A stretch of 62,238 bases of DNA, from the NCBI GenBank assembly GCA_036336595.1, contig JAYZFV010000032.1, positions 1 to 62,238 on the forward strand, in the 5' to 3' direction. Every line of letters starts with the position of its first letter. Within the stretch, counting starts at the first letter, position 1. This DNA is from Thermoplasmatota archaeon. Lineage in GTDB: Archaea; Thermoplasmatota; Poseidoniia; Poseidoniales; Thalassarchaeaceae. The notes beneath the pieces are model-generated. The model did no database searches, was not told where the DNA came from, and was given only the letters and a program-made list of their open reading frames with translations. Shown in pieces: positions 8,550 to 47,561 of this stretch. The position numbers and the translations under genes were made by a program.

Positions 8550-8678
8550 ACGTCACCCAAGACGCATTTCCGCTTGAACGGTGCGGAAGGCATCGAAAAG
8601 CGTTCGAACGAATGGTTGAAGAGTCAGTCGGGTCAGCGATGCTTGGTTCGCGTTTCTGCGGTAATGGTGCGTGAGAGC

Positions 8679-9059
8679 ATGTTCTGTCCCGAGTGTGGTT
8701 CTCTATCCTACCCCGATTCCAAGGGTTGGGTGAAGTGCCCCGACTACAAATGCGGATATGAGGGGCCCTTGTCAGGAACAGATGGGAAGGGCTCCGAATT
8801 CACCGACCCGATGACCGGGGAGACCATCGATCTCTCCAAGACGAGGGCGACCACTGACTCCAAGTCCCTCAAACACCTGACTGAGGTGGTTGAGGAGGAG
8901 GGACCCAGGGGCACGCTTAGGGTCGGCGACTACATCTGTCCCAAATGCGATGGCGACAGGACCTTCGTCGAGCTTCGTCAGACTAGGGCCTCGGACGAAC
9001 CTGAGACCAAGATTTGCACATGCGAGACCTGTGGCCACAGGTGGCGGGAGTACCAGTAA
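8679..9059 (+). CDS. tfs: Transcription factor S (TFS / RpoM-like)
   Basis: N-terminal Zn ribbon MFCPECG...CPDYKCG. C-terminal Zn ribbon CPKCDG...CETCGH with the acidic hairpin QTRASDEPET. Alternative ATG at 8664; the 211-aa ORF from 8424 is upstream read-through. Confidence 0.85.
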   Translation: MFCPECGSLSYPDSKGWVKCPDYKCGYEGPLSGTDGKGSEFTDPMTGETIDLSKTRATTDSKSLKHLTEVVEEEGPRGTLRVGDYICPKCDGDRTFVELRQTRASDEPETKICTCETCGHRWREYQ

Positions 9060-9130
9060 TCTCACCGATGTGACTCACCAAGAAGCATCAAGAGCCTTCT
9101 ATTACGAAAAGGACGAGAGGGCGTGTGCGG

Positions 9131-9880: not shown

Positions 9881-9913
9881 ACTCATCAATGAGGCCCCTC
9901 AGGCAAAACTGAG

Positions 9914-18799: not shown

Positions 18800-20203
18800 C
18801 TAACGACCTCCTGAGAGTAACCCTGGGTGAGTGTCCAAGTAGTCGGTGGTGATGTTCCTTTCCCTAAAGTCGGACTCAGCCAGAATGGCTCGATGCAATG
18901 GTATCAGCGTATCGACGCCTAGTAGGATGGTCTCATCCAGGGCAGCATCAAGCCTGACGATCGCCTCCTCCCTTGAGGGTGCCCACGCAATGACCTTGGC
19001 AAGGAGGGAGTCGAAAGCATCTGGCATGTCATATCCCGTATGTGCGTGAGAGTCTATCCTGACACCCGGTCCGCCTGGCCAATGGCACTCCCAGACCTTG
19101 CCGGGAGAGGGGGTCAAGGTCACTGGATTCTCAGCGTTTATCCTCGCCTGAATGGCATGGCCATTCCACCTGATGCCTTGCTGGGACAAGGCGAGGTCTT
19201 CTCCCGCAGCGACTTGGATGCCTAAGGAGACCAAATCCAGCCCAGTGATCATCTCGGTGACGGTGTGTTCGACTTGAACTCGTGGATTGACCTCCATGAA
19301 GAAGAACTCCCCCTCGGCATCCCTCAGGAACTCGAAGGTCGCGAGGCCTTGGTATCCAATTGCCTCCGCGCCGGCGACCACAAGCGCGCCAATCTCCTGT
19401 CTTACATCTTCACTAAGCCAAGGCCCCTCTTCGAGGATCTTCTGGTGACGGCGTTGGATCGAACAGAATCTCTCGCCGAGGTGAATCGCCTTGCTGCCAT
19501 CACCCAGAACCTGGAACTCTATGTGCTCGGCGTCACCTATGAACTTCTCAAGGAAGACTCGATCATCGCCGAATGCAGATGCTGCTCTACCCTGGCATAG
19601 CCTCAGCGCAGACTGGAAGTCCTCCTTTTTCCCCACTACCTGCATCCCGATTCCACCACCTCCAGAGGCGGCTTTGATGATAAGCGGGAAACCGATCTCT
19701 GTGGCGATCTCGGATGCCTCTTCGGGATTGGCGACCGGTTTGTCCGAGCCCCTCGCCACAGGGATGCCGGCCTTTGACATCGCCTCCCGTGCAGCAATCT
19801 TATCTCCGAGCAGTCGGAGGGACTCGGGTGTCGGGCCGATGAATGTGACTCCCTCGTCAGCTAGGCGTTGGGCGAATGCTGCGTTCTCGGCGAGGAATCC
19901 ATAACCGGGGTGTACTGCATCTGCGCTGACGTCCTTGGCTGCGGCGACGATAGCCTCGATGTCCAGATACGAGGCCAGTGGATCGTCGCGGGGAATGTAA
20001 TATCCCTCGTCTGCTAGCCTGACGGGCAGCGATAAGCGGTCCTCCCTGCCATGGATGACGACAGCCTCCGTGCCCATCGATCGCAGAGAGCGTAGGATGC
20101 GGAGCGCGATCTCCCCACGGTTCGCGATGAGGACACGTCGGAACACGTCCCCCGCTGAGTGCACATTCGTATGAGTGAATCGGCCTACGAAATCAGTAGA
20201 CAT
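18800..20203 (-). CDS. accC: Biotin carboxylase (AccC / pyruvate carboxylase subunit A type)
   Basis: VLIANRGEIALRILRSLRSMG, HPGYGFLAENA, ATP-grasp GGGGIGMQVV, EVNPRVQVEHTVTE. Confidence 0.92.
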   Translation of the reverse strand: MSTDFVGRFTHTNVHSAGDVFRRVLIANRGEIALRILRSLRSMGTEAVVIHGREDRLSLPVRLADEGYYIPRDDPLASYLDIEAIVAAAKDVSADAVHPGYGFLAENAAFAQRLADEGVTFIGPTPESLRLLGDKIAAREAMSKAGIPVARGSDKPVANPEEASEIATEIGFPLIIKAASGGGGIGMQVVGKKEDFQSALRLCQGRAASAFGDDRVFLEKFIGDAEHIEFQVLGDGSKAIHLGERFCSIQRRHQKILEEGPWLSEDVRQEIGALVVAGAEAIGYQGLATFEFLRDAEGEFFFMEVNPRVQVEHTVTEMITGLDLVSLGIQVAAGEDLALSQQGIRWNGHAIQARINAENPVTLTPSPGKVWECHWPGGPGVRIDSHAHTGYDMPDAFDSLLAKVIAWAPSREEAIVRLDAALDETILLGVDTLIPLHRAILAESDFRERNITTDYLDTHPGLLSGGR

Positions 20204-21473
20204 CCCTGAGGTATCGCTTCTCTGTCTTCATCAGCCCGGTCTCGACGAAGTCCTTTGCCTCGTCCGGGCTCAAACCACCATACTCAGCGCAGATTTCAAT
20301 GAGGGTACTATGGACGTCCTTGGCCATGTAATTCTTGTCGCCGCATACGTAGAAGTGAGCCCCATCTTCTAACCAGTTCCAAATCTCCTCACCGTGCTGC
20401 TTCATGAGGTGCTGTACGTAGACCTTCTCAGGACCGGCCCTAGACCAAGCTAGGTCGTGCTTGGAAAGGACGCCACGTTCCTTCCAGTCATCCATCTCAT
20501 CCCTGTAGTAATACTCCCCCTCCTCGGTCCAATCCCCGAAGAAGAGCCAATTACGCCCGTTTGCTCCATCGATGTCTCGCTGTTGAAGAAAGGCCCTGAA
20601 TGGGGCGATTCCCGTGCCGGGTCCGACCATGATGATGTCAGTGGATCCGTCTTGGGGAAGGACAAACGAACGAGTCGGGGACATGAAGACCCCGACTTGC
20701 GTCGCGTTGGTGTCGCACCTTTCGGCCATGAAGCCGGTGCAGAGCCCGGTTCGGTCCCTGTTATGGTGATTGTACCGGACGACGGCTACGGTCAGATGAA
20801 CGGTGCCTTGCTCGAAGTCTGGACTGCTGGCAATCGAGTAGAGGCGGGGCTTGAGCCTGTCCATGCCATCAACCAACTGTTGTGGCGAGAACCCAATGTA
20901 CCCGAAGTCTGTGATGGCGTCGATGTAGTCCCTCGACCATATGTAGTCCTCCATGGATTTAGGATCGGAGGTCAGATCACTCCAGAGCGTGGCTGCCGGA
21001 TCGCCGGCAGCGCCAATCTCGACGTAGTCCTCTGGGACATCTTCGTCGGTGCCGCTGCCTTGCCAATCCACCAACAGGGAGCCATCCGAGGAGGAGTGGC
21101 GCTGACGTCTCACGATCCTCATCTCGATTGGTCCTGTTTCGTTTGACAGGCGGCCCCCCAGGCCCTCGATCCATTTCTTCGAGACACGATGGATCTCGTA
21201 TCTATCGGTGAGGGCCTCCCTCAGGGAACAGTCTCCATGGTGAGTCTCGACCTCTTCTTCTCCTGAGAAGTTGGTAGCGGACAGGAGTCCCTCGACCAAA
21301 TCCGGAGGGCACCTTGGAATGACACCGAGAGCGTCTCCGACCTTGTATGTCATGCCCGAGTCCCCCAGGTCGAACACGATGTGCCTAGTCTCCTTGCGAG
21401 AGCCATCCCCATTGAGGATGAAATTATGGGTAGAGGTAGAGAGAAACGGGTTCTTCGCACTCCAGTCGGACAT
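20193..21473 (-). CDS. FAD/NADPH-binding reductase of the CysJ / cytochrome-P450-reductase (FNR-like) family, no flavodoxin domain
   Basis: RLYSIASSP (FAD binding), MVGPGTGIAPFRAF (NADPH binding), C-terminal YLRDVY. The ORF starts directly with the FAD-connecting domain. The 3' end overlaps accC by 11 nt. Confidence 0.8.
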   Translation of the reverse strand: MSDWSAKNPFLSTSTHNFILNGDGSRKETRHIVFDLGDSGMTYKVGDALGVIPRCPPDLVEGLLSATNFSGEEEVETHHGDCSLREALTDRYEIHRVSKKWIEGLGGRLSNETGPIEMRIVRRQRHSSSDGSLLVDWQGSGTDEDVPEDYVEIGAAGDPAATLWSDLTSDPKSMEDYIWSRDYIDAITDFGYIGFSPQQLVDGMDRLKPRLYSIASSPDFEQGTVHLTVAVVRYNHHNRDRTGLCTGFMAERCDTNATQVGVFMSPTRSFVLPQDGSTDIIMVGPGTGIAPFRAFLQQRDIDGANGRNWLFFGDWTEEGEYYYRDEMDDWKERGVLSKHDLAWSRAGPEKVYVQHLMKQHGEEIWNWLEDGAHFYVCGDKNYMAKDVHSTLIEICAEYGGLSPDEAKDFVETGLMKTEKRYLRDVY

Positions 21474-31763: not shown

Positions 31764-32024
31764 ATGGCGGAGGCGTTCCGTGACAGGGCCACCCCCGGGA
31801 CGGTGCCGATCCTGATATCGGGCTTGGCGCACGACAGGCCCGCTACCGATGGCGTCAAGCTACAGGTGATCGACGACCTCTGCGTTGGCTGCTCGTACTG
31901 TCTGATGGCTTGCAAAGACGATGCACTAGTCGTCGAAGGGCTGTGCGAGGTCATCGAGCAGAACTGCACCGACTGCCTCCTTTGCCTGCTGTGGTGCCCG
32001 ACGGGCGCCTTGGTGTACGCATGA
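31764..32024 (+). CDS. 2x[4Fe-4S] ferredoxin-like protein
   Basis: The C-terminal 55 aa carry two cluster motifs: CVGCSYCLMAC and CTDCLLCLLWCP. Divergent from moaC with a 52-bp spacer. The start ATG 31764 is inferred. Confidence 0.6.
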   Translation: MAEAFRDRATPGTVPILISGLAHDRPATDGVKLQVIDDLCVGCSYCLMACKDDALVVEGLCEVIEQNCTDCLLCLLWCPTGALVYA

Positions 32025-32033
32025 GGTGGGGCA

Positions 32034-33377
32034 ATGGGGAGATCGAAGGCCGTAGTGATCGGTGCGGGCATCGGGGGGTTATCATCAGCGGCCCGACTCG
32101 CGCAGACAGGAAAGTACGACGTCTCGGTCTATGAGAGGATGTCGTTCGCTGGAGGCCGCTTCACCCAACACGACCACGACGGATTCCAGATTCCCACTGG
32201 CGCGGTCCACATGATCCCACACGGGCGCAAGGGACCGTTCGCAGACCTCCTGTTGGGGAAGCGTGGCAAAGAAGGGCTGGATCTCGGGCGTCACGGCGTC
32301 GATTTCCTCCCGACGACCAAGTTCGCGTGCCAACTCAAGGACGGAGGGCTCCACGGCGCCAATTCCGTCTACGGGATCCTGCCTTGGTTCCCAATGAAGA
32401 ACACGCTGAACCTGCCCCGGCTCCTCGCTAAGCGCGCTAAGCGACCCTGGGGGGATGAGGGCGAGGATGGGCGTACGTGGCTGAAACGCTTGTTCACGGA
32501 TGACTTCATTGACTTCTTGGACGCGTTTTCCAACTTCGCCATCAGCCTGCGCTTCGACCAGATGCCCGCCTCGACGGTCGTCAGGATACTGCAGAACTCA
32601 TTCTGGAGCGACAGGCCCCACATTCCCAAAGGTGGGTGCAAAGGGGTGATTGACGGATTGAGGGCCGATTTGAAGCAGCATGGGGCGCGGGTCAAGCTGT
32701 CGCACGAGATCACCGAGATTCTGCCTGGGAATGCGGAGGAGTCCACCAAGGGGAACCGGTTCTGCATAGGCGTGAGGCGCCGAGGCAGGGAAGCCCCGAC
32801 CTGGATAGGTGCCGATGCGATCGTCCACAATGGCGGGCACCCCAACCTCCTGAGCTCCCTCTCTGACGACTTCGAGGTGGCAGAGGGCGTCCGCGAACAG
32901 GTCGCGAACACCCAGGCAGTCGGCGGAATCGGCTTCGTCTTCGACCTTGACGACGAGATTCCGCATCGCGACAGCGGGGTGACGATGCTGCCGAACCTCG
33001 ACAGGGTCGGTGGCTACGTGATACCGACCTTCTCGGAGCCTGAGTTGGCTCCAGAGGGAAGACACATGATGATCACGCACCAGTACGTTCCCGACCCCAG
33101 CGTGAAGTCCGAGATTGCCAAGGGCAGGGAGGACCTGCACGAGGCGATACCCTGGCTCTCCGACCACGGCGAAGAGCTGTGCGTACACACCTACCACAGG
33201 AACTGGCCCTGCAACCGCGCCCCGCAGGGAGCGGAGCTCCCAGCTGACATCGGGGTCGAGGGCATCAGGCTCGTCGGGGATGGGGTGAAGGGGCATGGGT
33301 GGATGATGGTCGAGGGGATTGCAGCCAACGTTCCGAGCGCTGTTAGGGACGTCAGCAAGACGATGGATGCGGCCTAG
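32034..33377 (+). CDS. FAD-dependent oxidoreductase, phytoene-desaturase (CrtI/COG1233-like) family
   Basis: N-terminal dinucleotide fold KAVVIGAGIGGLSSAARLAQTGKYDVSVYERMSFAGGR. Length and the C-terminal GDGV..G motif fit the amine-oxidase/CrtI superfamily. Confidence 0.78.
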   Translation: MGRSKAVVIGAGIGGLSSAARLAQTGKYDVSVYERMSFAGGRFTQHDHDGFQIPTGAVHMIPHGRKGPFADLLLGKRGKEGLDLGRHGVDFLPTTKFACQLKDGGLHGANSVYGILPWFPMKNTLNLPRLLAKRAKRPWGDEGEDGRTWLKRLFTDDFIDFLDAFSNFAISLRFDQMPASTVVRILQNSFWSDRPHIPKGGCKGVIDGLRADLKQHGARVKLSHEITEILPGNAEESTKGNRFCIGVRRRGREAPTWIGADAIVHNGGHPNLLSSLSDDFEVAEGVREQVANTQAVGGIGFVFDLDDEIPHRDSGVTMLPNLDRVGGYVIPTFSEPELAPEGRHMMITHQYVPDPSVKSEIAKGREDLHEAIPWLSDHGEELCVHTYHRNWPCNRAPQGAELPADIGVEGIRLVGDGVKGHGWMMVEGIAANVPSAVRDVSKTMDAA

Positions 33378-33896: not shown

Positions 33897-35210
33897 GTGG
33901 ACCGGCGAGGAGCAGGTGCTGATGAGGCCAACGCGAGGCGGCGAAGGGCCGAGGCCGAAGCGGAAGCCGCACGAAAGGCAGCAGAATTAGCGAAGCCGAA
34001 GCACATCCTGGGCGCTGGGCTGTCGGGGTTGTCCGCAGCAACCATCCTAGCCAGGGCTGGATGTGAGGTCCACGTGCACGAGATACGCAGCGACAGCGGG
34101 GCGCGGTTCGATGGCGACTTCCAGGGGATCGAGAACTGGACTAGCGGTGTGGACTTCTTCGACGAGATGCGTGAGTGGGGCTTCGACACGGAGGATTTCA
34201 AAGCGGATGCGTTCGGCGTCATCGACCTCGTCCACCCCGACGATGCAATCACCAACCCCAGAACAGACGGCGTCGCCTTCAGGATCGTACAGAGGGGGAC
34301 TGATGGGCACACCATCGACCAGAGCTTCAAGCGGATGGCGGTGGAGGCGGGGGCCGAGATCCACTACGACACTCGAAGGGAGCCCGAGGACTGCCATATC
34401 GTCGCCGCAGGGCCCAAGGAGACTAGCGCGGTGGCATACGGTGAGATCTTCCACACCGACCACCCCAATCACGTCACCTTCCAACTCAACGACAAGCTGG
34501 CCCCTGGTGCCTACTCCTACCTCATCGTCATCGACGGCATCGGACTGATCTGCACGTGCCTGTGGCGCCAGCAGCGCAAGAGCAGCCGCCACCTCAACGA
34601 GACCATCGCTTGGTACGAGCAGCACTACGACCTCAACAGGAGGCCGATCAAGAGAGTGGGGGGCAAGGGCGACTTCGGGCTACCGACGAGGTACGTCCAC
34701 GAGGGACGCTACTACGTCGGCGAGGCCGGCGGGCTGCAAGACTGCATGTGGGGCTTCGGAATGAGATACGCGATCACCAGCGGCGTGCTCGCCGCCAAGT
34801 CGATCCTAGGCGAGTGCAACTACGAAGCCGAGGTCCGCGGTCGCCTCCTCCCACTCGTCAGGACCAGCGCAATCAACCGCTTCCTGATGAATCGGGTCGG
34901 AGACCGCGGCTTCAAGATGGTTATCAACCACTGGATGCGCGACCAAGAGAAGAAGGGGGACGGGCTTGCCTTCATGCAGTGGCTGTACAAGCCGGGAATC
35001 GTCCGGAGCCTCCTCTGGCCGATGGCGAAACTGGGGATGCTCCGTCGCAAGCGGCTGGCCGACGGTAGGACCGTGCACCGCATGCCGTTCAGAAAGGCCC
35101 GGAAGAGGGACGTTTGGGAGCCGAGCGCTAGGGCTGTGGAAATAGGTGAGGAGTGGAGGGCGATCCAGCGAGGCGGGGGGAGACTGTCCTTCGGAGAATC
35201 GGATGCCTGA
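33897..35210 (+). CDS. FAD-dependent oxidoreductase, geranylgeranyl-reductase-like
   Basis: ILGAGLSGLSAATILARAGCEVHVHE dinucleotide fold and YVGEAGGLQDCMWGFGMRYAITSG (GD-type motif). GTG start, with an odd Ala/Arg/Glu-rich leader; the true start is uncertain. Confidence 0.72.
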   Translation: MDRRGAGADEANARRRRAEAEAEAARKAAELAKPKHILGAGLSGLSAATILARAGCEVHVHEIRSDSGARFDGDFQGIENWTSGVDFFDEMREWGFDTEDFKADAFGVIDLVHPDDAITNPRTDGVAFRIVQRGTDGHTIDQSFKRMAVEAGAEIHYDTRREPEDCHIVAAGPKETSAVAYGEIFHTDHPNHVTFQLNDKLAPGAYSYLIVIDGIGLICTCLWRQQRKSSRHLNETIAWYEQHYDLNRRPIKRVGGKGDFGLPTRYVHEGRYYVGEAGGLQDCMWGFGMRYAITSGVLAAKSILGECNYEAEVRGRLLPLVRTSAINRFLMNRVGDRGFKMVINHWMRDQEKKGDGLAFMQWLYKPGIVRSLLWPMAKLGMLRRKRLADGRTVHRMPFRKARKRDVWEPSARAVEIGEEWRAIQRGGGRLSFGESDA

Positions 35211-35238: not shown

Positions 35239-36120
35239 ATGGCGTCCCTCGGTGGAATCTCCATGACATCGTGGCCTGAACTGGAGCCGATGGAGAACAA
35301 CCTGGTGAACTACGGGGTCACCGACAACGGCATCGCCGTCATCGAGCTGTCCTCCGACTCGTCCGGAGAGCCCTGGACTGAGGGCAAAACCTCGGTCAAC
35401 ACCTACACCCATGCCATGATGCGGGACATCGACGAGGCCGTGCTACGCGCCCGCTTCGACGATGACGTCACTGTGATCATCCTCACCGGGCACGGGGAGA
35501 AGTTCTTCTCCGCGGGTGCGAGCATCAGTATGCTTGACTCCGTCACCCCCGGCTTCAAGTACTTCTTCTGCCTTCACGCCAACGAGACACTCAGCAGGCT
35601 CGAGCAGACCCCCAAGCTAGTCATAGCCGCCCTCAACGGCCACGCAGTCGGCGGTGGGCTCGAGATCGCGATGTCCGCCGACATTCGTATCGCCCGCAAG
35701 GACTCGGGGCAAGTCGGCCTGCCAGAGGTGTCATTGGGGGTGCTCGCCGGAACCGGTGGTACCGCTAGGCTCTCTCGCCTCGTCGGCAAGGCGAAGGCTA
35801 TGGAGATCATGGTGACCGGCAGGAAGTTCTCGTACGAGGAGGCCAAGGACATGTCCCTGGTCCACGACATCTGGGATGGCAGCCTCGGGGATTTCCAACA
35901 GGACGTCATTGACTACGCTGGCCAGTTCACCCTCCCAATGGCAGCCAGCAAGGCGATTGGGAACATCAAGCGCAGCGTCCAGAGCGGGATGGAGATCCCG
36001 CTCGAGTACCACCTTGCGTTGGAGCGCGAGCTGCAGTCGGACCTGTTTCAGAGCTCGGATGCCAAGGAAGGCATAGCTGCCTACGTCGAGAAGAAGACGC
36101 CTCGCTTCAAGGGCGAGTGA
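35239..36120 (+). CDS. Enoyl-CoA hydratase/isomerase (crotonase) family protein
   Basis: VIILTGHGEKFFSAGASI and ALNGHAVGGGLEIAMSADIRIA (oxyanion-hole motifs). Possible ATG starts at 35203, 35239, 35263 and 35290. Confidence 0.85.
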   Translation: MASLGGISMTSWPELEPMENNLVNYGVTDNGIAVIELSSDSSGEPWTEGKTSVNTYTHAMMRDIDEAVLRARFDDDVTVIILTGHGEKFFSAGASISMLDSVTPGFKYFFCLHANETLSRLEQTPKLVIAALNGHAVGGGLEIAMSADIRIARKDSGQVGLPEVSLGVLAGTGGTARLSRLVGKAKAMEIMVTGRKFSYEEAKDMSLVHDIWDGSLGDFQQDVIDYAGQFTLPMAASKAIGNIKRSVQSGMEIPLEYHLALERELQSDLFQSSDAKEGIAAYVEKKTPRFKGE

Positions 36121-36191
36121 GTGGGCACGCACTCTGCGGGTGCGGAGTGCAGACGCAACCTCTGATATACCGGCCCCTATTGCCCGTCACA

Positions 36192-37334
36192 ATGGCAGAG
36201 ACCGAGGTAGTGGAGAGTTATCCCACCAACTTCGAAGCGTGGATTCAGGAGTTCAACGAGTGGCAGACTCGGATTGGCTTCGACCCCTCGTGGCTGGGTG
36301 ACTACCGCTTCGACATCAAGTTCGACTGGGACACCGCCGGAGGCGAGATCGAGTTCGGGGACTTCTTGGGGATGCCGAAGTGGGAGCGGCGGATGCAGAT
36401 TCCCCAGCAGAACATCCGCGACGCCATTGTCAGCATGGTCAACGTCCAGGGCGATACCGAGTTCGCTAGCGTCGAGCAGCAGAATCACCTCCTTGCGTCC
36501 GCGCCCACTGAGTACGATCGGAAGTCAGCCCTCCGAATCATGTGCGAGGAGCAGCGCCACGGCTGGCAGATGGCCTACTTGTTGTGCGCCTTCTTCGGGG
36601 AGCAGGGGGTGCGCGAGGCAGCCAAGCTCCTGGAGCGCAATGCCCAGGATGGCACTAGGATACTCGGCTCGTTCAACGAACCGATCGACCACTGGCTGGA
36701 CTTCTTCATGTTCACGCACTTCATCGACCGCGACGGCAAGTACCAGCTGAAGATGCTGAGCACTTCCTCGTTCAAGCCTCTTGCAGCGAGCATGGGGCCG
36801 ATGCTCAAGGAGGAGTCCTTCCACCTGGGCACCGGGGCCAACGGGCTGCGCAGGGTAGTGAAGCAGGGGGTGATTCCCTGTGCGCTGATACAGAAGTACG
36901 TCAACAAGTGGGCTAGCACCGGTCTCGATCTGTTTGGCACCGACGACTCGAGCAGTGCCCAGTGGGCCTACGTCTACGGCATCAAGGGGAGATACGACGA
37001 GCGCGAGGCGGCAGTGGAGGCAGACCGGGAGCACTTGAACGAGGCCAGCAGAGAGCTGTACTTCCAGGAGTTGCGCGGCGAGATGAAGCGAATCAGCAAG
37101 GTTCGCAAGGAGGGCGAGCCGGATCTCCACATCCCCTCTGACAAGTTTCGCAGGGGAATCGGCAAGTATGCTGGGGAGATGTACACCGTCGAGGGCGAGC
37201 CCTTCGAGGGCAGCCAGGGGGAGTACGAGGCCTATCTCGCCTCGGTCCTGCCAAGCGAGGAGGAGGAGGAACAGCTCGTCAACGAATACATGCAGCAAGA
37301 GTGGATACAGTACCGCGAGTGGAAGGGAGACTGA
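36192..37334 (+). CDS. BoxB-like di-iron acyl-CoA oxygenase (benzoyl-CoA 2,3-epoxidase subunit B family)
   Basis: GDTEFASVEQQNHL, MCEEQRHGWQMAYLL (ExxH), WLDFFMFTHFIDRDGKYQL and MLKEESFHLGTG (ExxH) run colinear with the BoxB catalytic core as I remember it from Azoarcus BoxB. ATG 36192. Confidence 0.72.
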   Translation: MAETEVVESYPTNFEAWIQEFNEWQTRIGFDPSWLGDYRFDIKFDWDTAGGEIEFGDFLGMPKWERRMQIPQQNIRDAIVSMVNVQGDTEFASVEQQNHLLASAPTEYDRKSALRIMCEEQRHGWQMAYLLCAFFGEQGVREAAKLLERNAQDGTRILGSFNEPIDHWLDFFMFTHFIDRDGKYQLKMLSTSSFKPLAASMGPMLKEESFHLGTGANGLRRVVKQGVIPCALIQKYVNKWASTGLDLFGTDDSSSAQWAYVYGIKGRYDEREAAVEADREHLNEASRELYFQELRGEMKRISKVRKEGEPDLHIPSDKFRRGIGKYAGEMYTVEGEPFEGSQGEYEAYLASVLPSEEEEEQLVNEYMQQEWIQYREWKGD

Positions 37335-37353
37335 ATCCCTTGGGGGGGCTTCC

Positions 37354-37917
37354 ATGCAGCATGTCGCTCTGACCTCGTTCGACAAAGAGCGTTGCAAGCC
37401 GTTCTTTGACCGCCTGACCGAGTACTTTCACCAACACCATCACTCGGAGGAGCAGGATGCCGTATCCTACGAGGAGCTGCTCTACCGCATCCGCAGGCCC
37501 TACACCCCGCAGATGCTCGACATGATTGACGAGTGGATGGGTCTCGAGCGCCGTGACTGGCGCGAGGATGCACAGAGGGAGGTGCTGCTCTCGCTCTACG
37601 CCATTCGCTACCCGGACACACTCCTGATCGAGAGTCTGACCGAAAAGGCGCGGTCGGACATCCGCAGGCTCTCAGCCTACCTGCACTTCACCCACCACAC
37701 CTATTCCATCTGGGACGAGGACAGCCGGAAGGGACTGGGGAGGCTTGGAATCGAGATTCCAGACACTGAGCATGCCGACCCGTTTGTGTACGGGGCCTAC
37801 GTCACCGCAATCGAGCTGCTCAAGGACGTTGCTCCCTTCACATGCTTCCTAGAGCACGACGTGCCCCGCCAGCGCCTGTTCCAGGCCGCGCTCGCGGCCT
37901 ACGGGCGCGAGGCGTGA
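37354..37917 (+). CDS. Hypothetical protein (187 aa) inside the BoxB-like cassette
   Basis: ORF with good coding look (MQHVALTSFDKERCKPFFDRLTEYFHQHHHSEEQD...), 20 nt after the BoxB-like gene. No recognisable domain or Cys clusters. Confidence 0.5.
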   Translation: MQHVALTSFDKERCKPFFDRLTEYFHQHHHSEEQDAVSYEELLYRIRRPYTPQMLDMIDEWMGLERRDWREDAQREVLLSLYAIRYPDTLLIESLTEKARSDIRRLSAYLHFTHHTYSIWDEDSRKGLGRLGIEIPDTEHADPFVYGAYVTAIELLKDVAPFTCFLEHDVPRQRLFQAALAAYGREA

Positions 37918-37952
37918 GCACGGCTTATTGCCGTCCGTCGGCTCGCGGTGGC

Positions 37953-38801
37953 ATGGAGATTCGCACTGTGGCGGTCGTCGGTGCCGGGACGATGGGCGTG
38001 GGGATAGCGCAGGTCTGTGCCCAGACAGGATGGCAGACGCGCTTGTTCGATGCGTTTCCCGAAGCGCTCGTGCGCGGGATGAACGCGATCGAGGAGTTCT
38101 GGGACGGTGGGATAGAGCGGGGAAAGACCACTGCCGAGCAGAAGGCCGAGTGGACCGCCAACCTGAGTTCAACGGGTGCCCTGGCAGATGCCGTGGACGG
38201 AGCCGATCTGGTGGTCGAGGCTGTCCCCGAGCTGATTGAGCTCAAGCAGTCGACGTTCCAAGAGCTTGAGGGTCTAGCACCCAGTCATGCCATCCTCGCG
38301 ACCAACACGTCAGGACTGCCAATCTCAGAGATCGCTGCAGCCACCGGTTGTCCTGATCGGGTCATCGGCATGCATTTCTTCAACCCGGTCCCACTGATGC
38401 GGCTTCTCGAGATAGTGCGCCACGATGGCGTCTCGGATGAGACCATCTCTGCAGCCGAGTCCATCGGCGAGGCGATGGGCAAGACCACCATCTTAGTCCG
38501 CGACGTCCCTGGCTTCGCGACCAGCCGCCTCGGCGTAGTGCTTGGAAACGAAGCGATACGGATGCTCGCCGACGGGGTGGCCTCGGCTAGCGACATCGAC
38601 ACAGCGATGCGCCTGGGATACCGTCACCCAATGGGCCCGCTCGAGCTCTCGGATTTGGTGGGACTGGACGTGCGCAGGGACATTCTGAATAGCCTAGCGG
38701 ATGCGTTCCAGGACGAGGCATACAGGCCCCACCCGATGCTGGACGAACTAGTGGAGGCAGGGGATCTCGGGAGGAAGACCGGCAAGGGGATCTACGACTG
38801 A
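37953..38801 (+). CDS. 3-hydroxyacyl-CoA (3-hydroxybutyryl-CoA) dehydrogenase
   Basis: VAVVGAGTMGVGIAQV NAD fold, ATNTSGLPISEIA, IGMHFFNPVPLMRLLEIV, GFATSRL, MGPLELSDLVGLD. Confidence 0.9.
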   Translation: MEIRTVAVVGAGTMGVGIAQVCAQTGWQTRLFDAFPEALVRGMNAIEEFWDGGIERGKTTAEQKAEWTANLSSTGALADAVDGADLVVEAVPELIELKQSTFQELEGLAPSHAILATNTSGLPISEIAAATGCPDRVIGMHFFNPVPLMRLLEIVRHDGVSDETISAAESIGEAMGKTTILVRDVPGFATSRLGVVLGNEAIRMLADGVASASDIDTAMRLGYRHPMGPLELSDLVGLDVRRDILNSLADAFQDEAYRPHPMLDELVEAGDLGRKTGKGIYD

Positions 38802-38846: not shown

Positions 38847-40937
38847 TTAGTACTTGGACCAGCTCAGCCCCTCCGGGGAGAAGGCGCAGGATCCCTCGCA
38901 GGTGTCGTCTACGGTACCGGTGGTCAGGAAGTGGAAGGCCATGAGCCTGGCCATTGGAAGGCCACCGATCGAGTTGTGCGCTGGGTGAGGCTCCACCCCG
39001 TACGTGTTTCCCTCGGGTGCATGCTCGTAGCCCCCATCAAAGAAGACGCCCACTGAGCCAGCGTGCTCGTGACTCACAGTGCCCGCCAAGCCATACGGGG
39101 TAATGGTTGAGCTATCCAGGAGGGGGATGCCCCCGGTCCGCATCATCCTGCTTGAGGAGATGTTGGAGATCTGGAAGTCACCGATGGAGAACAGGGTCAT
39201 CAACTCGAAGGGCGCGACCTCGCTGCCATAGCCGTCATTCATCAGGTAGAGGAAGGTATCAGTCTCGGTGGAGTCCCACAGGGACTGCAGCACCGACATG
39301 GCGATGGCCCTATCCATCTGGTCAGGGTATCCGAACTCGCTTGCGAAGCCCCAGTAGAACTGGTCGTACTGGGTGCAGCGCTCGATTATTTGCGAGAAGG
39401 CCGAGCCCCCCGCCCAAAGCACCCCCCTGTTCAGGTCCGGGGACAGCCCGATGACGGAGGGGCCCCTGAGGGCGCCATTGGAGTAGCCCGTGTACGTCGG
39501 GCTGGTGGTGTCGATGAGCTTCGTCCCGTTGAGATAGTACTCCGAGAGGTCCGAGCAGGCCCCCACGAATGTTCTGACCATCACCGCCTGGTTGACCATC
39601 GCCTGCTCGAGGCGCTCAGACTGGTGCTGGAAATACTGCATGTTCAGGACAGCGAACTCGATGCTGGTGAAGTCGTCAGAGGCCCAGCCGTAGAAGCTGG
39701 TTCCGAGCATGGCAACGTTGTTCTCGTTCGCCCACGCCCTGAGTCCAGTGGTATTTCCGTCCCCCAGGAAGCCATGCCCCCATATGGTGAGCGGGGCGGG
39801 CTCGCCGTACTCGGCCGCCGTGCTGGGGATGAGGAGCCAGAAGGGTATCTCCCGGTTCTCGACGAATATCGGGGTCCTGTCCTCTGCCCTCTGAATCAGT
39901 GCTGGAGGGTAGAACGACTCTGTGTACTGGGGGGCAGTGTAGGTCCCGGTAATCAGCCAGTGGCTCCTGTTGCCGTCTTCGAACACCTCCGAGTTGCTCT
40001 CCACCGTGCAACCCAGCCCATTCCCAGTCCTGTCCAGTGCGTCGTTCCTCATCGACAGCAGAGGCCCGATGATGGACTCGGTGGATGCGGTGTGGAACTG
40101 CCAGGCTGCCTGCAGGTCAGCGGTAGCCACGTTCGTGTTGGCGTCCGCCCAAGCGAAGAGCCCCTCGAACTGTGATCTCCGGCTCTCGATGTCAGGGGAA
40201 TCGGTGATCACGCCATCCCGAAGGGCGGCGAATCCCTCGTTCGCAGAGATAGGCAAGCCGTGCGAGTCGGCCAGACCGGAGATCAGCACCGCGTAGCGGG
40301 TGTCGTGATCCAGGGACTTGATCGTCCTGATGTGAAGGATCGTCGGGCGGTCATCCTCGGAGCGGGCATCCAACTCGACCCAGTGGGCGATGAACTCGCC
40401 CGAATCCAGATTCAGCAGTTTGGTTGGGTGGTCGGATTCGAGGCTCTTGCCGATCGTGTACTGACCCGCTAGCTCAGAGACATCCGGCTCGGAGGAGAAG
40501 GCCGTCATGATCTGGGAGGAAGGGCTGACGCCGTCTATCTGGTTGATGATGGGTATCTCGACGACGGGAGAGAACGACGAGCCGGGGATCGAGTTCGGTG
40601 CGTAGTTCATCCTGACGCCAGTCACCGTGCTTTCATCCTCCTTGAGGAAGGCGTCCGAGGGGAATGGCAGCATGCAGTGTATTGGATTGGTGTTGTCGCA
40701 GCCATCCCTATGAGGAATCGAGGCGGTTTCTGGGGTGGGGGCTGCCCCGTCGTCGGAAGGGACTGGGGGGGTGCACGAGCCATCGTCGGCAGTTGCAACT
40801 GGATCGAAGTTGGACGCAGTAGAGTCAGTGCAACCCGAAATCTCCTGAGGTTCGTGGGTGACACTGGCAGTGCAGCCAGCGAGAAGCATCGTTGCGACTA
40901 GCAGGATCGAGGCGATCTTGGGGCCCGGTCCACTCAT
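38847..40937 (-). CDS. Secreted/lipobox-anchored putative serine hydrolase with an N-terminal C..DDGSC module
   Basis: Signal/lipobox ILLVATMLLAGC. One CTDSTASNFDPVATADDGSC module. Candidate nucleophile elbow GYSNG and WGHGFLGDG. Otherwise no recognised family. ATG 40937 chosen because it sits immediately before the signal peptide. Confidence 0.55.
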   Translation of the reverse strand: MSGPGPKIASILLVATMLLAGCTASVTHEPQEISGCTDSTASNFDPVATADDGSCTPPVPSDDGAAPTPETASIPHRDGCDNTNPIHCMLPFPSDAFLKEDESTVTGVRMNYAPNSIPGSSFSPVVEIPIINQIDGVSPSSQIMTAFSSEPDVSELAGQYTIGKSLESDHPTKLLNLDSGEFIAHWVELDARSEDDRPTILHIRTIKSLDHDTRYAVLISGLADSHGLPISANEGFAALRDGVITDSPDIESRRSQFEGLFAWADANTNVATADLQAAWQFHTASTESIIGPLLSMRNDALDRTGNGLGCTVESNSEVFEDGNRSHWLITGTYTAPQYTESFYPPALIQRAEDRTPIFVENREIPFWLLIPSTAAEYGEPAPLTIWGHGFLGDGNTTGLRAWANENNVAMLGTSFYGWASDDFTSIEFAVLNMQYFQHQSERLEQAMVNQAVMVRTFVGACSDLSEYYLNGTKLIDTTSPTYTGYSNGALRGPSVIGLSPDLNRGVLWAGGSAFSQIIERCTQYDQFYWGFASEFGYPDQMDRAIAMSVLQSLWDSTETDTFLYLMNDGYGSEVAPFELMTLFSIGDFQISNISSSRMMRTGGIPLLDSSTITPYGLAGTVSHEHAGSVGVFFDGGYEHAPEGNTYGVEPHPAHNSIGGLPMARLMAFHFLTTGTVDDTCEGSCAFSPEGLSWSKY

Positions 40938-40978
40938 GTGCTGTCCGAAGGCGAACGGGTTATCAAACCCCTCGCGTG

Positions 40979-42262
40979 CTAACCGCATTGGACGCAGTAG
41001 ACGCTTTCGGGCTGGCCGCCCTCAATGAATGTGGTGAACCATCCGAGGAAGCCCACGCCCTCCACATCGAGGGTGTAGAACCTCTCCGAAGTCAGAATTG
41101 TGTGCGCCTGGCCGGGAGAGAGGTATCCCGAGTAGGGCATGCCCGCCTCCTCGATTTGAGCATCGGCGCTGACAATGACCATCTTGTAGTCCACAGTCAC
41201 ATCGTTCTCCAGAAGGGCGTTGAAGAAGCGCATGGTCTGGTCGTAGGCGTCGTCGAAGCGCGCGAACCTGATGTCGTTGTCGTGCGTCCAAGTCCGTATC
41301 AGTAGGTCGGCGCTCGTCATCTCGTTGAAGTTGAGCCCATCCAGCGGGAAGTCAGCCAGAGTCGAGTTGAGGCCCCAAATCTCGTAGAAGTCGAAGGTGT
41401 TGTTCGAGACCAGCCCGCCGCTGCCATCGTTGAAAACGGCGATGTCCGCATCAGGGTAGTCATCCGAGGCCAGCGCCCCGTAGAACGGTGCTGGTAGCGA
41501 TCCCGCGCTGGATCCGGTTACGAAGATGTGCGTGGCATCCGGGTAGTTATCGAGCATGTAGGCATAGGCTGTCTGAGCGTTCACGTGCCCATTGTGGTGT
41601 ACCGCCCCACCGGAGTATTCGGTCACCGTATTGCCGATGAAGATGTCGCCCGTGCAGTAGGGTACGAACACGAAGGACCAGTCGGCCAGAGGGTTGTCCC
41701 TGTTGTTGAGGTTGAAGATCCCGCCGTTGTTCGAGTAGACCGAGGAGGCAGTGCTTGGGTTGTCCCAGTCCCCTACCGTGGTCTTGAAGGTCCCTCCTTC
41801 GAACTGGCAACTGTAGTTCTCCCAGCACCCGCCGCCGCCCTGGAAGTAGAGCACCACCCGAGACGGGTCAGCGTGCCTTGACCAGAACGAGTAGTTCGAG
41901 CCGTCCGAGCACTCGCAGTCACCACCAGGGTCGTGTCTGACCCAGTCGATTCCGTAGGACGACTCCCAAGGCGGGTAGAAGCAGGAGCCGTCGTCTTCGG
42001 TCGCTGCGGATTGGTAGTTGGTCGCTGCATCGTCCATGCAACCTATGATCTCGTTGATGTCCCACACGCCGTCTCCATCCGAATCAGCGTACTCGCAGGA
42101 GCCGTCATCCGTCGTGGCTGTGATGTCGAAATTCGTGGCAGATTCGTCTATGCACCCCAGAACGTCTGCATTGGGGTCATCGCTCGGCTCTGACACGCAC
42201 CCTGAGAGCAGCATGCAGCCAACGAGGACTAGAGCGATTGAGGGTCGGTGACAACCACGCAT
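40979..42262 (-). CDS. Secreted/lipobox-anchored pectin-acetylesterase/Notum-like hydrolase with two C..DDGSC modules
   Basis: Signal/lipobox LVLVGCMLLSGC. Modules CIDESATNFDITATTDDGSC and CMDDAATNYQSAATEDDGSC separated by a DSDGDGVWD Ca-binding-like repeat. VVLYFQGGGGCWENYSC and VTGSSAGSL resemble the PAE family GGG-C and GxSxG motifs. Confidence 0.6.
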   Translation of the reverse strand: MRGCHRPSIALVLVGCMLLSGCVSEPSDDPNADVLGCIDESATNFDITATTDDGSCEYADSDGDGVWDINEIIGCMDDAATNYQSAATEDDGSCFYPPWESSYGIDWVRHDPGGDCECSDGSNYSFWSRHADPSRVVLYFQGGGGCWENYSCQFEGGTFKTTVGDWDNPSTASSVYSNNGGIFNLNNRDNPLADWSFVFVPYCTGDIFIGNTVTEYSGGAVHHNGHVNAQTAYAYMLDNYPDATHIFVTGSSAGSLPAPFYGALASDDYPDADIAVFNDGSGGLVSNNTFDFYEIWGLNSTLADFPLDGLNFNEMTSADLLIRTWTHDNDIRFARFDDAYDQTMRFFNALLENDVTVDYKMVIVSADAQIEEAGMPYSGYLSPGQAHTILTSERFYTLDVEGVGFLGWFTTFIEGGQPESVYCVQCG

Positions 42263-42317: not shown

Positions 42318-43379
42318 CTAGAGAGTCTTCGTCAGCATCCTGTGGAAGTGGTGGACCCCGGTCTCCCTGGTCGGGGAGTACCGGCCACGGTCGTAGGCTC
42401 CAGCACCGACGCCACGCTGGGTTGCCTCGACGATTTCCTGATCCTCGGCCTCGATCTTGTCCAAATCGCCCCCGGCTCCCTTGCCAAGCATCGATTTGTC
42501 GCCGACGAAGCCATGGTAGATGATGCGCGTTCGATTGACTGAGAGGGGGACTACGAGGTTGACCGATAGCCCCCAAGGGTAGAAGTTGAGCATCAACCCA
42601 GGGTAGAGCCAGTAGTAGTACGCCGCAACTCGCTCACCGTAGTCTGGCGTGGACTCTGGTAGGTCGAAGGCGGGATCTCCCTCGTTGGCGATGCCGATCT
42701 GGACCACGCCGCCATCGAACAGCTCGGTTCGATAGGAATCGTAGTCAAGCGCGTCGTGGAGGTCCGCGTGGACGTACGGTATGTGGAACCCCTCGAGGTA
42801 GTTATCGACGTACAGCGCCCAGTTAGCCTGGATCTCATACGTGCGATGACGCGATGGGTCGTGCTCGAAGTCCTCTATTGGAATCCATCCGAGCCTGTTC
42901 TGCAACTCTGCTATGCAGCCCTCGAAGCCGATTGGATCGGTACCGGTGAACACGATCCCCTTCCACCTGTGAACGGGGAATTGGGCTAGGTCGTCAGATG
43001 GGCTGGGGAATCCCTCTACACCTTCGAACTCGGGCATGTTCCTGAAGCAGCCGTCCAAGCCGAAGGTGCGGCCATGGTATGGGCATCGAAGAGTCTGGGC
43101 CGAGCACGGCACACCAGCGATCAGCATGCCCCTGTGGGTGCATACGTTCGAGATGCAGCGAACGCCCCCGTCCGTGGTCATGAGCATCGGCTCGCCCACC
43201 AGGGCCCCCATGTGGTCAAGCGGCAAGACATTCATCTCGGCGAGCTGGCTCTCGTGACCGGCGTAGTGCCATGACTCGGAGAAAGTCGCGAGCAGTTCCG
43301 AGAACAGCTCATCATCAGTGTAGTAGCGCGATGGCAGCGTCTGCGCCTTGCGGATATCCGGTTTGATCAAGGGGGACAA
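42318..43379 (-). CDS. Rieske [2Fe-2S] non-heme-iron oxygenase, alpha-subunit-like
   Basis: Rieske motif CTHRGMLIAG...CPYHGRTF. Mononuclear iron motif NYLEGFHIPYVHADLH. No beta subunit or reductase adjacent. Confidence 0.85.
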   Translation of the reverse strand: MSPLIKPDIRKAQTLPSRYYTDDELFSELLATFSESWHYAGHESQLAEMNVLPLDHMGALVGEPMLMTTDGGVRCISNVCTHRGMLIAGVPCSAQTLRCPYHGRTFGLDGCFRNMPEFEGVEGFPSPSDDLAQFPVHRWKGIVFTGTDPIGFEGCIAELQNRLGWIPIEDFEHDPSRHRTYEIQANWALYVDNYLEGFHIPYVHADLHDALDYDSYRTELFDGGVVQIGIANEGDPAFDLPESTPDYGERVAAYYYWLYPGLMLNFYPWGLSVNLVVPLSVNRTRIIYHGFVGDKSMLGKGAGGDLDKIEAEDQEIVEATQRGVGAGAYDRGRYSPTRETGVHHFHRMLTKTL

Positions 43380-46286: not shown

Positions 46287-47561
46287 TCAGAGGCCGAGGA
46301 ACCGGAACCTCACATACACGTATGCTGCCAATAGCATCTTCTCGGTCTTCGACAGCTGGACTCTCGCAGTGAACACATCGCCATCGCGCTTGATGATCTT
46401 CTTCATGATCGACTGATAGAAGAATGTCATCGCCGCAGGAGAGTAGCGGGACGATTTGTCGAGCAGGGGGAGCAGCTTGAACGCCCGCTCTCTGTAGCCG
46501 TCTGCACGCTCAAGGTACTCCTTGACGAACGGGGTCCATCCGGGGTGGTCCATCAGCGCCTTTCCACTCTTGACGTCCTCCTCGGTGATGCCCCAGCGGG
46601 CGAGGTCCTCGAGGGGCAGGTAGATTCTGTCACGCTCAGCGTCCTCGGCGACGTCGCGGATGATGTTGACCAGTTGCATAAACACGCCCCAGGACTCCGC
46701 GGACTCGCGCGCTCGTGGGTCGTCGTAGCCGTAGATCTCTATGCAGACCAGCCCCACTGTCGAAGCTACCCTGTAGCAGTAAGAATAGAGGTCCTCGAAG
46801 GTTTGGTACCTATTTCGGTGGAAGTCGTTCTCCATCCCGCTGATCATGTCGTCCAGGAGCTGGCGGTGGATGCCAAACGTCCTCACAGTATCCTTGATTG
46901 CGATGAAGATCGGGTCGGTGGAGGTTATGTCCCCATAGGCCGTTGACAGTTTCTTCCTGTAGTAGAAGAGCTGTGACATCTTGTCGTTGTAGGTCGATCG
47001 GTCGAGAACCGGCTTCCCGGGGCTGAGGCGCTCGATCTTGGCTCGGTAATCCACTGACTCCGGATCGTCTGAGGAGCCTCCGGGGAAGACGTCTACGTAG
47101 TCCCCATCGGCGATGTCGTCGGCCCTCCGGCAGAATGCGTAGTAAGCCATGATGGCACGACGCTCCGTTTCTGGTAGATACTTGAACGAGTGGTAGAAGT
47201 TGCCGGCCTCCCTCCGGGTCAGCTCCTCGCAGTACTCGTAGGCCGTTTCGATCATGTGGTCGGGGACGTCGGGTTCGGTCCAGATGGCGGCATCGATGTG
47301 CCTGAACGGGTTGACCAGTTCCCCCCGTGAGCCGATGACGCCCATGAAGAGGGCCCCCTCGCGCACTGCCTCGAGCGCGGTGATGCTGATGGCGTGTGCA
47401 GCTTCCTTGGTCATGTCAACTGCGGCCCTGATCCTGTCGATGGGTTGGTCGGCATCGTCGAAATCGCCGACGTAGGGGCTCCGCTGAAGCCCGTCATCGG
47501 GCATGTCGGCGACCCGGGTGTCCTGACTCTGTGCCATAGCGTTCCCGAAATCGGGCGGCAA
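46287..47561 (-). CDS. Phytoene/presqualene-diphosphate synthase family protein (CrtB/HpnD-like)
   Basis: YEYCEELTRREAGNFYHSFKYLPETERRAIMAYYAFCRRADDIADG (first Asp-rich motif) and IIRDVAEDAERDRIYLP (second). About 100 aa of N-terminal extension if ATG 47561 is used; ATG 47255 would give a canonical length. Confidence 0.83.
   Translation of the reverse strand: MPPDFGNAMAQSQDTRVADMPDDGLQRSPYVGDFDDADQPIDRIRAAVDMTKEAAHAISITALEAVREGALFMGVIGSRGELVNPFRHIDAAIWTEPDVPDHMIETAYEYCEELTRREAGNFYHSFKYLPETERRAIMAYYAFCRRADDIADGDYVDVFPGGSSDDPESVDYRAKIERLSPGKPVLDRSTYNDKMSQLFYYRKKLSTAYGDITSTDPIFIAIKDTVRTFGIHRQLLDDMISGMENDFHRNRYQTFEDLYSYCYRVASTVGLVCIEIYGYDDPRARESAESWGVFMQLVNIIRDVAEDAERDRIYLPLEDLARWGITEEDVKSGKALMDHPGWTPFVKEYLERADGYRERAFKLLPLLDKSSRYSPAAMTFFYQSIMKKIIKRDGDVFTARVQLSKTEKMLLAAYVYVRFRFLGL

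Follow-up and report, generated by a model that had tools for sequence, protein, structure and literature searches.

Among described enzymes, the closest relative of the protein considered here is BoxB, the bacterial di-iron epoxidase that acts on benzoyl-coenzyme A (benzoyl-CoA). BoxB is a monomer without a structural subunit, makes only transient contact with its reductase, and needs BoxC to relieve its product inhibition (PMC4498308). The canonical box cluster has boxA, boxC and a gene for benzoate-CoA ligase. For A. evansii BoxB, PMC5489048 gives E120, E150, H153, D211, E240 and H243 as the di-iron ligands, and Q116, T119, S123, F193, F203/F206 and T210 as the residues that contact benzoyl-CoA. 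Here we describe a compact BoxB-like protein of 380 amino acids (aa), and the gene cassette around it, from an archaeon of the Thalassarchaeaceae (assembly GCA_036336595.1, contig JAYZFV010000032.1, positions 1 to 62,238); throughout, the window means this whole 62,238-nucleotide (62-kb) stretch.

Archaeal relatives of BoxB have been flagged before, and the novelty of the gene is therefore lower than the initial annotation, written from the sequence alone, had implied. JGI labels these archaeal proteins 'benzoyl-CoA 2,3-dioxygenase component B', NCBI calls them 'phenylacetic acid catabolic protein', and a one-line mention places boxB among the highly expressed genes of Marine Group II (MGII, the Poseidoniales; PMC5069720), in a metatranscriptome study whose supplements contain no boxB rows. 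Our search of the literature found no analysis of the family status of the short BoxB, its missing partners, its cassette, the 187-aa protein encoded beside it or its bacterial counterpart.

A compact subfamily of the BoxB branch

We found that the 380-aa protein matches the NCBIfam BoxB model (TIGR03225, benzo_boxB) with 216.6 bits (E 5.9e-64), below that model's equivalog cut-off of 499.1, and the PaaA model (TIGR02156) far more weakly, with 38.7 bits against a cut-off of 280. Similarly, the PDB entry for BoxB, 3per, matches with E 2.6e-47, and PaaA (3pw1, 4iit) only with E ~1e-5. The protein shares with PaaA the Pfam family PaaA_PaaC (PF05138; 47.6 bits, exceeding the gathering score of 28.5) and the ferritin-like di-iron core, but is otherwise distant from it, with a template-modelling score (TM) of ~0.5. 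When an AlphaFold2 (AF2) model of the protein (predicted local distance difference test, pLDDT, 95.1; predicted TM, pTM, 0.92) was searched with Foldseek, the top matches were all BoxB chains (3pm5/3q1g; TM 0.81-0.85, E ~1e-21). BoxB (3pm5, 3q1g, 3per, 3pf7) has the same fold over its whole length, with 35-44% identity and a colinear C-terminal domain, and the motifs GDTEFASVEQQNH, CEEQRH, FIDRDGKYQL and KEESFH are all present in the BoxB-like translation. The proposal that this archaeon encodes a BoxB-type di-iron acyl-CoA oxygenase is thus borne out by both the profile and the structure comparison.

The initial annotation had also judged the protein to be roughly 90 aa shorter than the bacterial enzymes, and had placed the loss at the N-terminus. 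The size was right, in that the protein has ~95 residues fewer than a 475-aa BoxB (BoxB at full length has ~470 aa), but the location was not: the two proteins are colinear through the C-terminus, and the shortfall is spread over six gaps along the whole protein (12, 24, 19, 23, 7 and 12 residues).

Phylogeny separates this short form from the canonical enzyme. In a neighbour-joining (distance) tree rooted on E. coli PaaC, canonical BoxB formed a clade with 99% bootstrap support that excluded all short forms. The Poseidoniales short forms made up a clade of their own (93%), which grouped, with moderate support (61-67%), with short forms from other Thermoplasmatota, Gemmatimonadota, a proteobacterial metagenome-assembled genome (MAG) and metagenomes. 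An exhaustive search of 1.84 billion cluster representatives returned only 899 relatives at E <= 1e-3, among them several clusters of 350-395 aa at 35-49% identity as well as BoxB of canonical length at 39-44%. When the GTDB species representatives were scanned with a short-form pattern, at least 590 stretches matched, and the best 80 of these, which were taken, are almost all from Poseidoniales. From these results, we conclude that the 380-aa protein belongs to the BoxB branch of the PaaA/BoxB family but is not canonical BoxB, and that the compact short form is a distinct subfamily, which occurs in both Poseidoniales families and also among certain other Thermoplasmatota and bacteria, Gemmatimonadota for example. 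One other archaeal protein of the superfamily, the SSO1313-like protein of Sulfolobus solfataricus (4mud; E 7e-21), is likewise short and without partners. However, at 235 aa it consists of the core helices alone and lacks the short form's C-terminal domain; compared with the AF2 model it gives a TMt of 0.84-0.87 but a TM of only ~0.5, at 22-24% identity.

To compare the active sites, we used an alignment of 14 canonical BoxB and 92 short forms, with A. evansii BoxB numbering. The six iron ligands (E90, E120, H123, D179, E208 and H211 in the window protein) are identical to those of BoxB and invariant in all 92 short forms, so that the metal site is intact, as had been claimed. Most of the benzoyl-contact residues are kept as well: Q116, T119, S123 and F193 are invariant, F203 is present in 90 of the 92 short forms, and position 206 is Phe or Tyr. 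T210 differs, being Thr in 14 of 14 canonical sequences and Ile or Val in 90 of the 92 short forms. W200 and F209, for which we found no mention as contacts in PMC5489048, are also invariant in the short forms. Because the residues of the benzoyl pocket are almost all kept, the comparison argues for an aromatic, benzoyl-like substrate, and against the different kind of CoA thioester that the initial annotation had suggested. At the same time, the short forms carry fixed changes beside the metal site (P121F, N147M, G151Q/M, L154G, A156Q, T210I/V, A241S and M244L). The chemistry or the substrate may therefore differ from that of BoxB, and these fixed differences leave room for another aryl-CoA.

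An order-wide cassette and its extensions

The BoxB-like gene is the third in a run of five genes on the + strand, encoding in order an FAD flavoprotein, the crotonase ECH1, the BoxB-like protein, the 187-aa protein and a 3-hydroxyacyl-CoA dehydrogenase (HADH), with spacers of 19-71 nt. For the last four of these genes, the short spacing on one strand that had been described is correct: 71 nt separate ECH1 from the BoxB-like gene, 19 nt separate the latter from the 187-aa gene, and 35 nt lie between the 187-aa gene and HADH. Proteins of the window and of its relatives were mapped by tblastn onto related loci; the set used throughout comprises 92 loci (the window and 91 others). Whether the cassette is conserved in related archaea had been posed as a question by the initial annotation; we found that the run of crotonase, BoxB-like gene, 187-aa gene and HADH is kept throughout the Poseidoniales, with the cassette present in ~80 species-level genomes. 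Between MGIIb genera synonymous divergence (dS) is saturated, so that only nonsynonymous divergence (dN) can be compared; it is lowest for the oxygenase (0.08-0.15), the most conserved gene of the cassette, and is 0.13-0.31 for the 187-aa gene, where dS is likewise saturated. Strong purifying selection thus acts on a cassette that spans the whole order.

The arrangement differs between the two MGII families. In MGIIb, the order is MoaE (-), followed by flavoprotein, ECH1, BoxB-like gene, 187-aa gene and HADH; in most MGIIb genera, HADH is then followed by SemiSWEET, ECH2 (-), an aldehyde dehydrogenase (ALDH) and ECH3 (-). MGIIa keeps the BoxB-like gene, a homologue of the 187-aa gene (~30% identity), an EamA permease, HADH, ECH2 (-) and ALDH (-), with ECH1 and the flavoprotein 3-5 kb from the BoxB-like gene on the other strand. 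In both families, linkage within 5 kb is retained. In MGIIa, as in a number of other Poseidoniales, the gene immediately before the BoxB-like gene encodes a regulator of the HTH_10 (bacterio-opsin-activator) type, which is absent from the window; it is Pfam-confirmed in L083 (9318-9941) and L045 (9246-9938) and recognised by sequence resemblance only in L050 (9294-9935), L057 (9321-9965) and L065 (1961-2713). Bacterial cassettes have a TetR regulator (TetR_C_24) in the equivalent role. Locus L045, from an MGIIb MAG (isolate SI053_bin38), carries a Fur regulator, a CoA_binding_2 protein and the HTH_10 gene between ECH1 and the BoxB-like gene (5905-9938, +), and two 433-aa HGD-D genes divergent from ECH1 (2139-4751, -); 2-hydroxyacyl-CoA dehydratases and the BcrB/C-type subunits of benzoyl-CoA reductase belong to the HGD-D family.

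A related cassette occurs in bacteria. Two Gemmatimonadota genomes (L090, L091) encode TetR, an ECH1 orthologue, ALDH, a thiolase, a PaaG-like crotonase, the BoxB-like protein and a GDPD-family protein, with HADH and a PaaF-like crotonase directly after these in L090 and ~9 kb downstream in L091. Identities between the Gemmatimonadota and archaeal proteins are 58-65% for ECH1, 55% for the BoxB-like protein and 48-58% for HADH. In both loci, the end of the BoxB-like gene is shared with the overlapping gene for the glycerophosphodiester phosphodiesterase (GDPD; L090, 7959-8765; L091, 11095-11778), which takes the place of the archaeal 187-aa gene. Without functional coupling, it is hard to account for the joint occurrence of ECH1, the BoxB-like gene and HADH in both archaea and bacteria. 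Separately, the archaeal type of arrangement, including the 187-aa gene, appears on several contigs with bacterial names: a Deltaproteobacteria single-amplified genome (AH-558-G13; L086), which has the full run of MoaE, flavoprotein, ECH1, BoxB-like gene, 187-aa gene and HADH, and MAGs assigned to Salinimicrobium (L049), Rhodobiaceae (L053) and simply 'bacterium' (L080). These contigs probably represent MGII DNA that was mis-binned or entered as contamination, as opposed to transferred genes.

We aligned the crotonases with E. coli PaaF, PaaG and canonical BoxC, comparing nine crotonases in all. The crotonase of the window, ECH1 (Pfam ECH_1, E 8e-48), is of the hydratase type, with both catalytic glutamates in place (GGGLE, LPE), and its gene adjoins or neighbours the BoxB-like gene in most MGII loci. 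The initial annotation had described it as a short crotonase. Of the nine crotonases, it is the one that the N-terminal half of BoxC matches best, with 88-92 bits (33-35% identity) against at most 60 for the others, and the two share the local motifs GA[SN]I..ML and K..FC...N. ECH1 has half the length of BoxC and lacks its C-terminal half, and it is kept with the oxygenase as BoxC is kept with BoxB; the NCBIfam BoxC model was not among its top 25 families. Its closeness to the N-terminal half of BoxC makes ECH1 a candidate substitute for BoxC, so that a short crotonase is not evidence that ring opening is absent.

The remaining enzymes of the extended clusters resemble those of the lower paa pathway. 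In ECH2 and its bacterial counterpart, both hydratase glutamates are gone and a PaaG-type Asp is present in 'PD'; the top NCBIfam matches of this type, alternative oxepin-CoA hydrolase and PaaG, score below the cut-offs. ECH3 and its bacterial counterpart retain both hydratase glutamates and are 39-43% identical to PaaF, which is among the top NCBIfam matches of ECH3, below its cut-off. The window HADH (3HCDH_N, E 4e-60; 3HCDH, E 5e-33) scores 330 bits with NCBIfam PRK09260, under the cut-off of 429; it resembles the N-terminal part of PaaH and is 40% identical to E. coli PaaH. The thiolase of the Gemmatimonadota cassette shares 59% identity with E. coli PaaJ; of the NCBIfam families, it matches 3-oxoadipyl-CoA thiolase best (567 bits against a cut-off of 605), with scores for the acetoacetyl-CoA thiolase models well below 567 bits. 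In one MGIIb locus (L042, 818-4850), two thiolases, a 262-aa protein and an NADPH-dependent FMN reductase precede ECH1, one of the thiolases being PaaJ-like and broken by ambiguous bases. The ALDH proteins of the cassette loci are of a generic type. On these resemblances, the neighbours in the extended clusters read as the enzyme set of the lower Box/Paa (dehydroadipyl-CoA) route and not as the plain set for fatty-acid beta-oxidation. The picture of a generic beta-oxidation cassette fed directly by the oxygenase, drawn by the initial annotation, is thus not supported in that form, as most relatives add a PaaG-signature isomerase, a PaaF-like hydratase and ALDH, and the Gemmatimonadota also a thiolase.

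The positions of the cassette features in the window are collected in Table 1. A GATATA hexamer upstream of the BoxB-like gene may, on sequence grounds, be an internal archaeal promoter that gives a leaderless transcript. The window as a whole is a housekeeping stretch of a genome of the Thalassarchaeaceae (Marine Group II b, MGIIb), which also encodes fibrillarin, Cdc6, FBP aldolase, GlpX, MoaC/MoaE, succinyl-CoA synthetase, ABCE1 and DnaJ; near-identical proteins and loci bear MGII names. After HADH, the window's lineage has, instead of the genes found in most MGIIb genera, three genes on the opposite strand. The first two encode secreted-looking proteins, one of 713 aa (38847-40988, -) and one of 427 aa that is pectinacetylesterase-like (40979-42262, -), both of which begin with Cys-bounded repeats of ~22 aa ('C.D..A.NFD..A..DDGSC'). 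Near both lies a Rieske/Ring_hydroxyl_A oxygenase (42318-43379, -) with no adjacent beta subunit. Further along is a tandem pair of the squalene/phytoene synthase family (46287-47561, -; 47640-48686, -).

Table 1. Features of the BoxB-like cassette, with positions in the window
Feature	Position	Strand	Basis or remark
FAD flavoprotein, distantly geranylgeranyl reductase-like	33897..35210	+	start codon uncertain
Crotonase ECH1	35263..36120; possible starts 35239, 35263, 35290	+	ECH_1
TATA-like hexamer GATATA	36164..36169	+	centred ~25 nt upstream of the BoxB-like ATG; read from the sequence
BoxB-like di-iron acyl-CoA oxygenase, compact form, 380 aa	36192..37334	+	TIGR03225, PDB BoxB, AF2
187-aa all-helical protein, no fold match	37354..37917	+	conserved 3' of the BoxB-like gene
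NAD-dependent 3-hydroxyacyl-CoA dehydrogenase (HADH)	37953..38801	+	3HCDH_N, 3HCDH

Candidate partners of the oxygenase

In the canonical box cluster, boxB has boxA, boxC and the ligase gene for company; the short-form loci have none of these nearby. We searched the 92 loci by tblastn with BoxA, BoxC and benzoate-CoA ligase from the canonical cluster and with E. coli PaaB, C, D, E, I, K and Z. Neither a full BoxA nor a long BoxC was found in the 62-kb window or in the 91 related loci, which agrees with the initial annotation. PaaB, PaaC, PaaD and PaaE were likewise not found in any of the 92 loci; a BoxB-like gene without a PaaC-like partner fits the monomeric nature of BoxB. Across the set, the sole match of the BoxC query was the short crotonase, and the N-terminal half of BoxC accounted for it.

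The BoxA query matched only a CysJ-like ferredoxin-NADP reductase (FNR)-type gene (window 20193..21473, -), through the C-terminal half of BoxA. This gene encodes an FAD/NADPH reductase module without a flavodoxin domain and lies beside genes for biotin carboxylase and a metallo-beta-lactamase (MBL)-fold protein, a trio that in some MGIIa (L048-L050, L054; ~6.4-7.8 kb) is found 2-3 kb upstream of the BoxB-like gene. The CysJ-like protein is of the sulfite-reductase-flavoprotein type (380 bits), and reaches 78.6 bits with the BoxA model against a cut-off of 459. An 86-aa 2x[4Fe-4S] ferredoxin (31767..32024, +) meets the N-terminus of BoxA via generic cysteine motifs only; together with a 447-aa CrtI/amine-oxidase-like flavoprotein (32034-33377, +), it is inserted between MoaC and MoaE in some MGIIb only. 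A 'split BoxA' made up of this ferredoxin and the CysJ-like FNR is a lead, not a finding.

A second lead is the flavoprotein encoded upstream of ECH1, the sole constant redox neighbour in archaea, which has a Rossmann motif and matches NAD_binding_8 (27.7 bits) and GG-red-SF (31 bits, far below the cut-off). In MGIIa and MGIIb alike, most loci with enough upstream sequence show it paired with ECH1. In the deep MGIIb lineage L042, where the flavoprotein was not detected, the FMN reductase stands immediately upstream of ECH1, and the Gemmatimonadota cassette contains no reductase. We regard the flavoprotein as a putative electron donor; alternatively, it may act as a C=C reductase.

Unlike BoxB, the archaeal short form is followed by a lineage-specific protein of 187 aa. 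The initial annotation had called this protein an orphan, yet it is not unique to the contig: almost all Poseidoniales loci with sufficient sequence have its gene after the BoxB-like one. Identity is 64-97% among the Thalassarchaeaceae (MGIIb) proteins listed and ~30-39% in other Poseidoniales, with 20 invariant residues, and relatives were found only in Poseidoniales-labelled loci and a few loosely labelled relatives. We found no match to it in Pfam, NCBIfam or the PDB, including by a profile search of PDB sequences. Its AF2 model is poor (pLDDT 65, pTM 0.52), and Foldseek of this model against the PDB gave nothing below E 0.9. Two identities were rejected, namely a ferritin-like or PaaC-like partner in degenerate form (hhalign probability 0.2% with the alignment of the BoxB family) and the missing C-terminal half of BoxC (hhalign probability 0.16%, and no BLASTP match). 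The protein is a candidate accessory subunit.

A predicted ring-cleavage pathway and its alternatives

The reading that we favour, with confidence somewhat above even, is a streamlined Box/Paa-like aerobic, CoA-dependent pathway of aryl ring cleavage, with a compact epoxidase, ECH1 in place of BoxC and a route via dehydroadipyl-CoA. From the homology, fold, ligand conservation, family separation and synteny described above, we infer the class of substrate, the order of the steps and what ECH1, the flavoprotein and the 187-aa protein do. We predict that the 380-aa protein is catalytically competent and acts, as a single subunit, as a di-iron oxygenase from the BoxB lineage. Most likely, it would use O2 and two electrons to epoxidise, and thereby dearomatise, the ring of an aryl-CoA thioester. 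This thioester would be benzoyl-CoA itself, a near analogue (for instance, a substituted benzoyl-CoA) or perhaps phenylacetyl-CoA. ECH1 would then open the ring hydrolytically, in the role of BoxC, and the semialdehyde product would be oxidised by ALDH. Finally, the PaaG-signature isomerase, PaaF-like hydratase, PaaH-like HADH and 3-oxoadipyl-CoA-type thiolase would convert dehydroadipyl-CoA to succinyl-CoA and acetyl-CoA. Electrons would come from a source other than BoxA, maybe the flavoprotein upstream of ECH1 or a general ferredoxin/FNR system, and the conserved 187-aa protein would probably serve as an accessory subunit. What is known of BoxB makes such a version plausible: as a monomer that contacts its reductase transiently and depends on BoxC, the enzyme could keep the crotonase and swap the reductase, and the relief of product inhibition by BoxC fits a crotonase that is always kept with the oxygenase.

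Several observations weigh against this pathway. ECH1's own best matches are ordinary PaaF-like hydratases and not BoxC, and all of the lower-pathway assignments score under the curated equivalog cut-offs. The cluster is incomplete in the window, since ECH2, ALDH and ECH3 are absent from its entire 62 kb, and in none of the 92 loci did we find an aryl-CoA ligase (benzoate-CoA ligase or PaaK), a thioesterase or a dedicated reductase. The fixed substitutions beside the metal site set the short forms apart from BoxB, and CoA-pathway genes are missing around the more distant short forms of bacteria (P0121, P0124, P0126), which are singletons. In addition, a highly transcribed MGII 3-hydroxyacyl-CoA dehydrogenase has been read as part of general fatty-acid beta-oxidation (PMC9723583), so that the cassette could be a mixed locus.

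A different substrate is unlikely in our view, although it is the best placed of the alternatives. In this reading, which goes back to the initial annotation, the enzyme would be a hydroxylase, desaturase or epoxidase of a non-aromatic CoA thioester. That thioester could be alicyclic, straight-chain or isoprenoid (from phytol or lipids, for example), and the product would feed the hydratase and the dehydrogenase directly. The window cassette, with only a hydratase-type crotonase and HADH, would suit such a route, as would the geranylgeranyl-reductase-like flavoprotein as constant upstream neighbour, the GDPD gene after the BoxB-like gene in Gemmatimonadota, the fixed changes beside the di-iron site, and the view of MGII as consumers of lipids and fatty acids with a highly transcribed HADH (PMC9723583, PMC6461757). 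However, the aromatic cage of BoxB and its thioester-binding Gln are strictly kept, and the extended clusters hold a PaaG-signature isomerase, ALDH and a 3-oxoadipyl-CoA-type thiolase, which are hallmarks of ring cleavage and needless for plain beta-oxidation. Moreover, no acyl-CoA dehydrogenase or fatty-acyl-CoA ligase is present among the annotated neighbours, although no query was aimed at acyl-CoA dehydrogenase.

Somewhat less probable is that the locus does not encode one pathway at all: ECH1 and HADH would serve general beta-oxidation, and the BoxB-like and 187-aa genes would form an independent unit with its own promoter and an unrelated substrate. The TATA-like element ~25 nt before the BoxB-like ATG and the isolation of the distant bacterial short forms as singletons are consistent with this, as is the layout in MGIIa, where HTH_10 lies directly upstream of the BoxB-like gene, ECH1 and the flavoprotein are 3-5 kb off on the other strand, and the EamA permease separates the 187-aa gene from HADH. 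Against it stand the linkage within 5 kb in both MGII families, and the occurrence of ECH1, the BoxB-like gene and HADH together in Gemmatimonadota as well as archaea, at the identities given above.

We give still less credence to a more specific proposal, in which an O2-dependent di-iron desaturase or hydroxylase of aliphatic or isoprenoid acyl-CoA would sit in the main, highly transcribed beta-oxidation locus of MGII, with the 187-aa protein as partner and the flavoprotein replacing BoxA as donor. If true, such an aliphatic or isoprenoid acyl-CoA oxidase would extend the PaaA/BoxB family to a new chemistry and give lipid catabolism a new point of entry. Least of all do we expect a di-iron protein that is not primarily a substrate oxygenase and that would, in a surface-ocean organism, detoxify oxygen or peroxide, deoxygenate epoxides or handle iron: the ferritin-like di-iron fold, the high expression in surface waters, the failure to find a dedicated reductase in the 92 loci and the proposal that BoxB deoxygenates its own epoxide product (PMC5489048) would all be compatible with it, but conservation reaches the acyl-CoA contact residues and the C-terminal domain, well past the metal ligands, and the linkage to CoA-ester enzymes is consistent.

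Poseidoniales are the dominant planktonic archaea of the surface ocean, with carbon sources inferred to be mainly proteins and lipids, and to our knowledge they have never been cultured. If the predicted aryl ring-cleavage pathway is true, Archaea would have their first known pathway of CoA-dependent aerobic ring epoxidation, and aromatic acids, or aryl-CoA from the breakdown of aromatic amino acids, would join the marine dissolved organic matter that MGII remove. The short form would then be a minimal BoxB, without BoxA, a long BoxC or four surface insertions. As an experiment done by nature, it would show what a di-iron epoxidase core requires: which electron donor, what means of relieving product inhibition, and what accessory subunit. 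As the same module is present in soil Gemmatimonadota, the question is not confined to the ocean.

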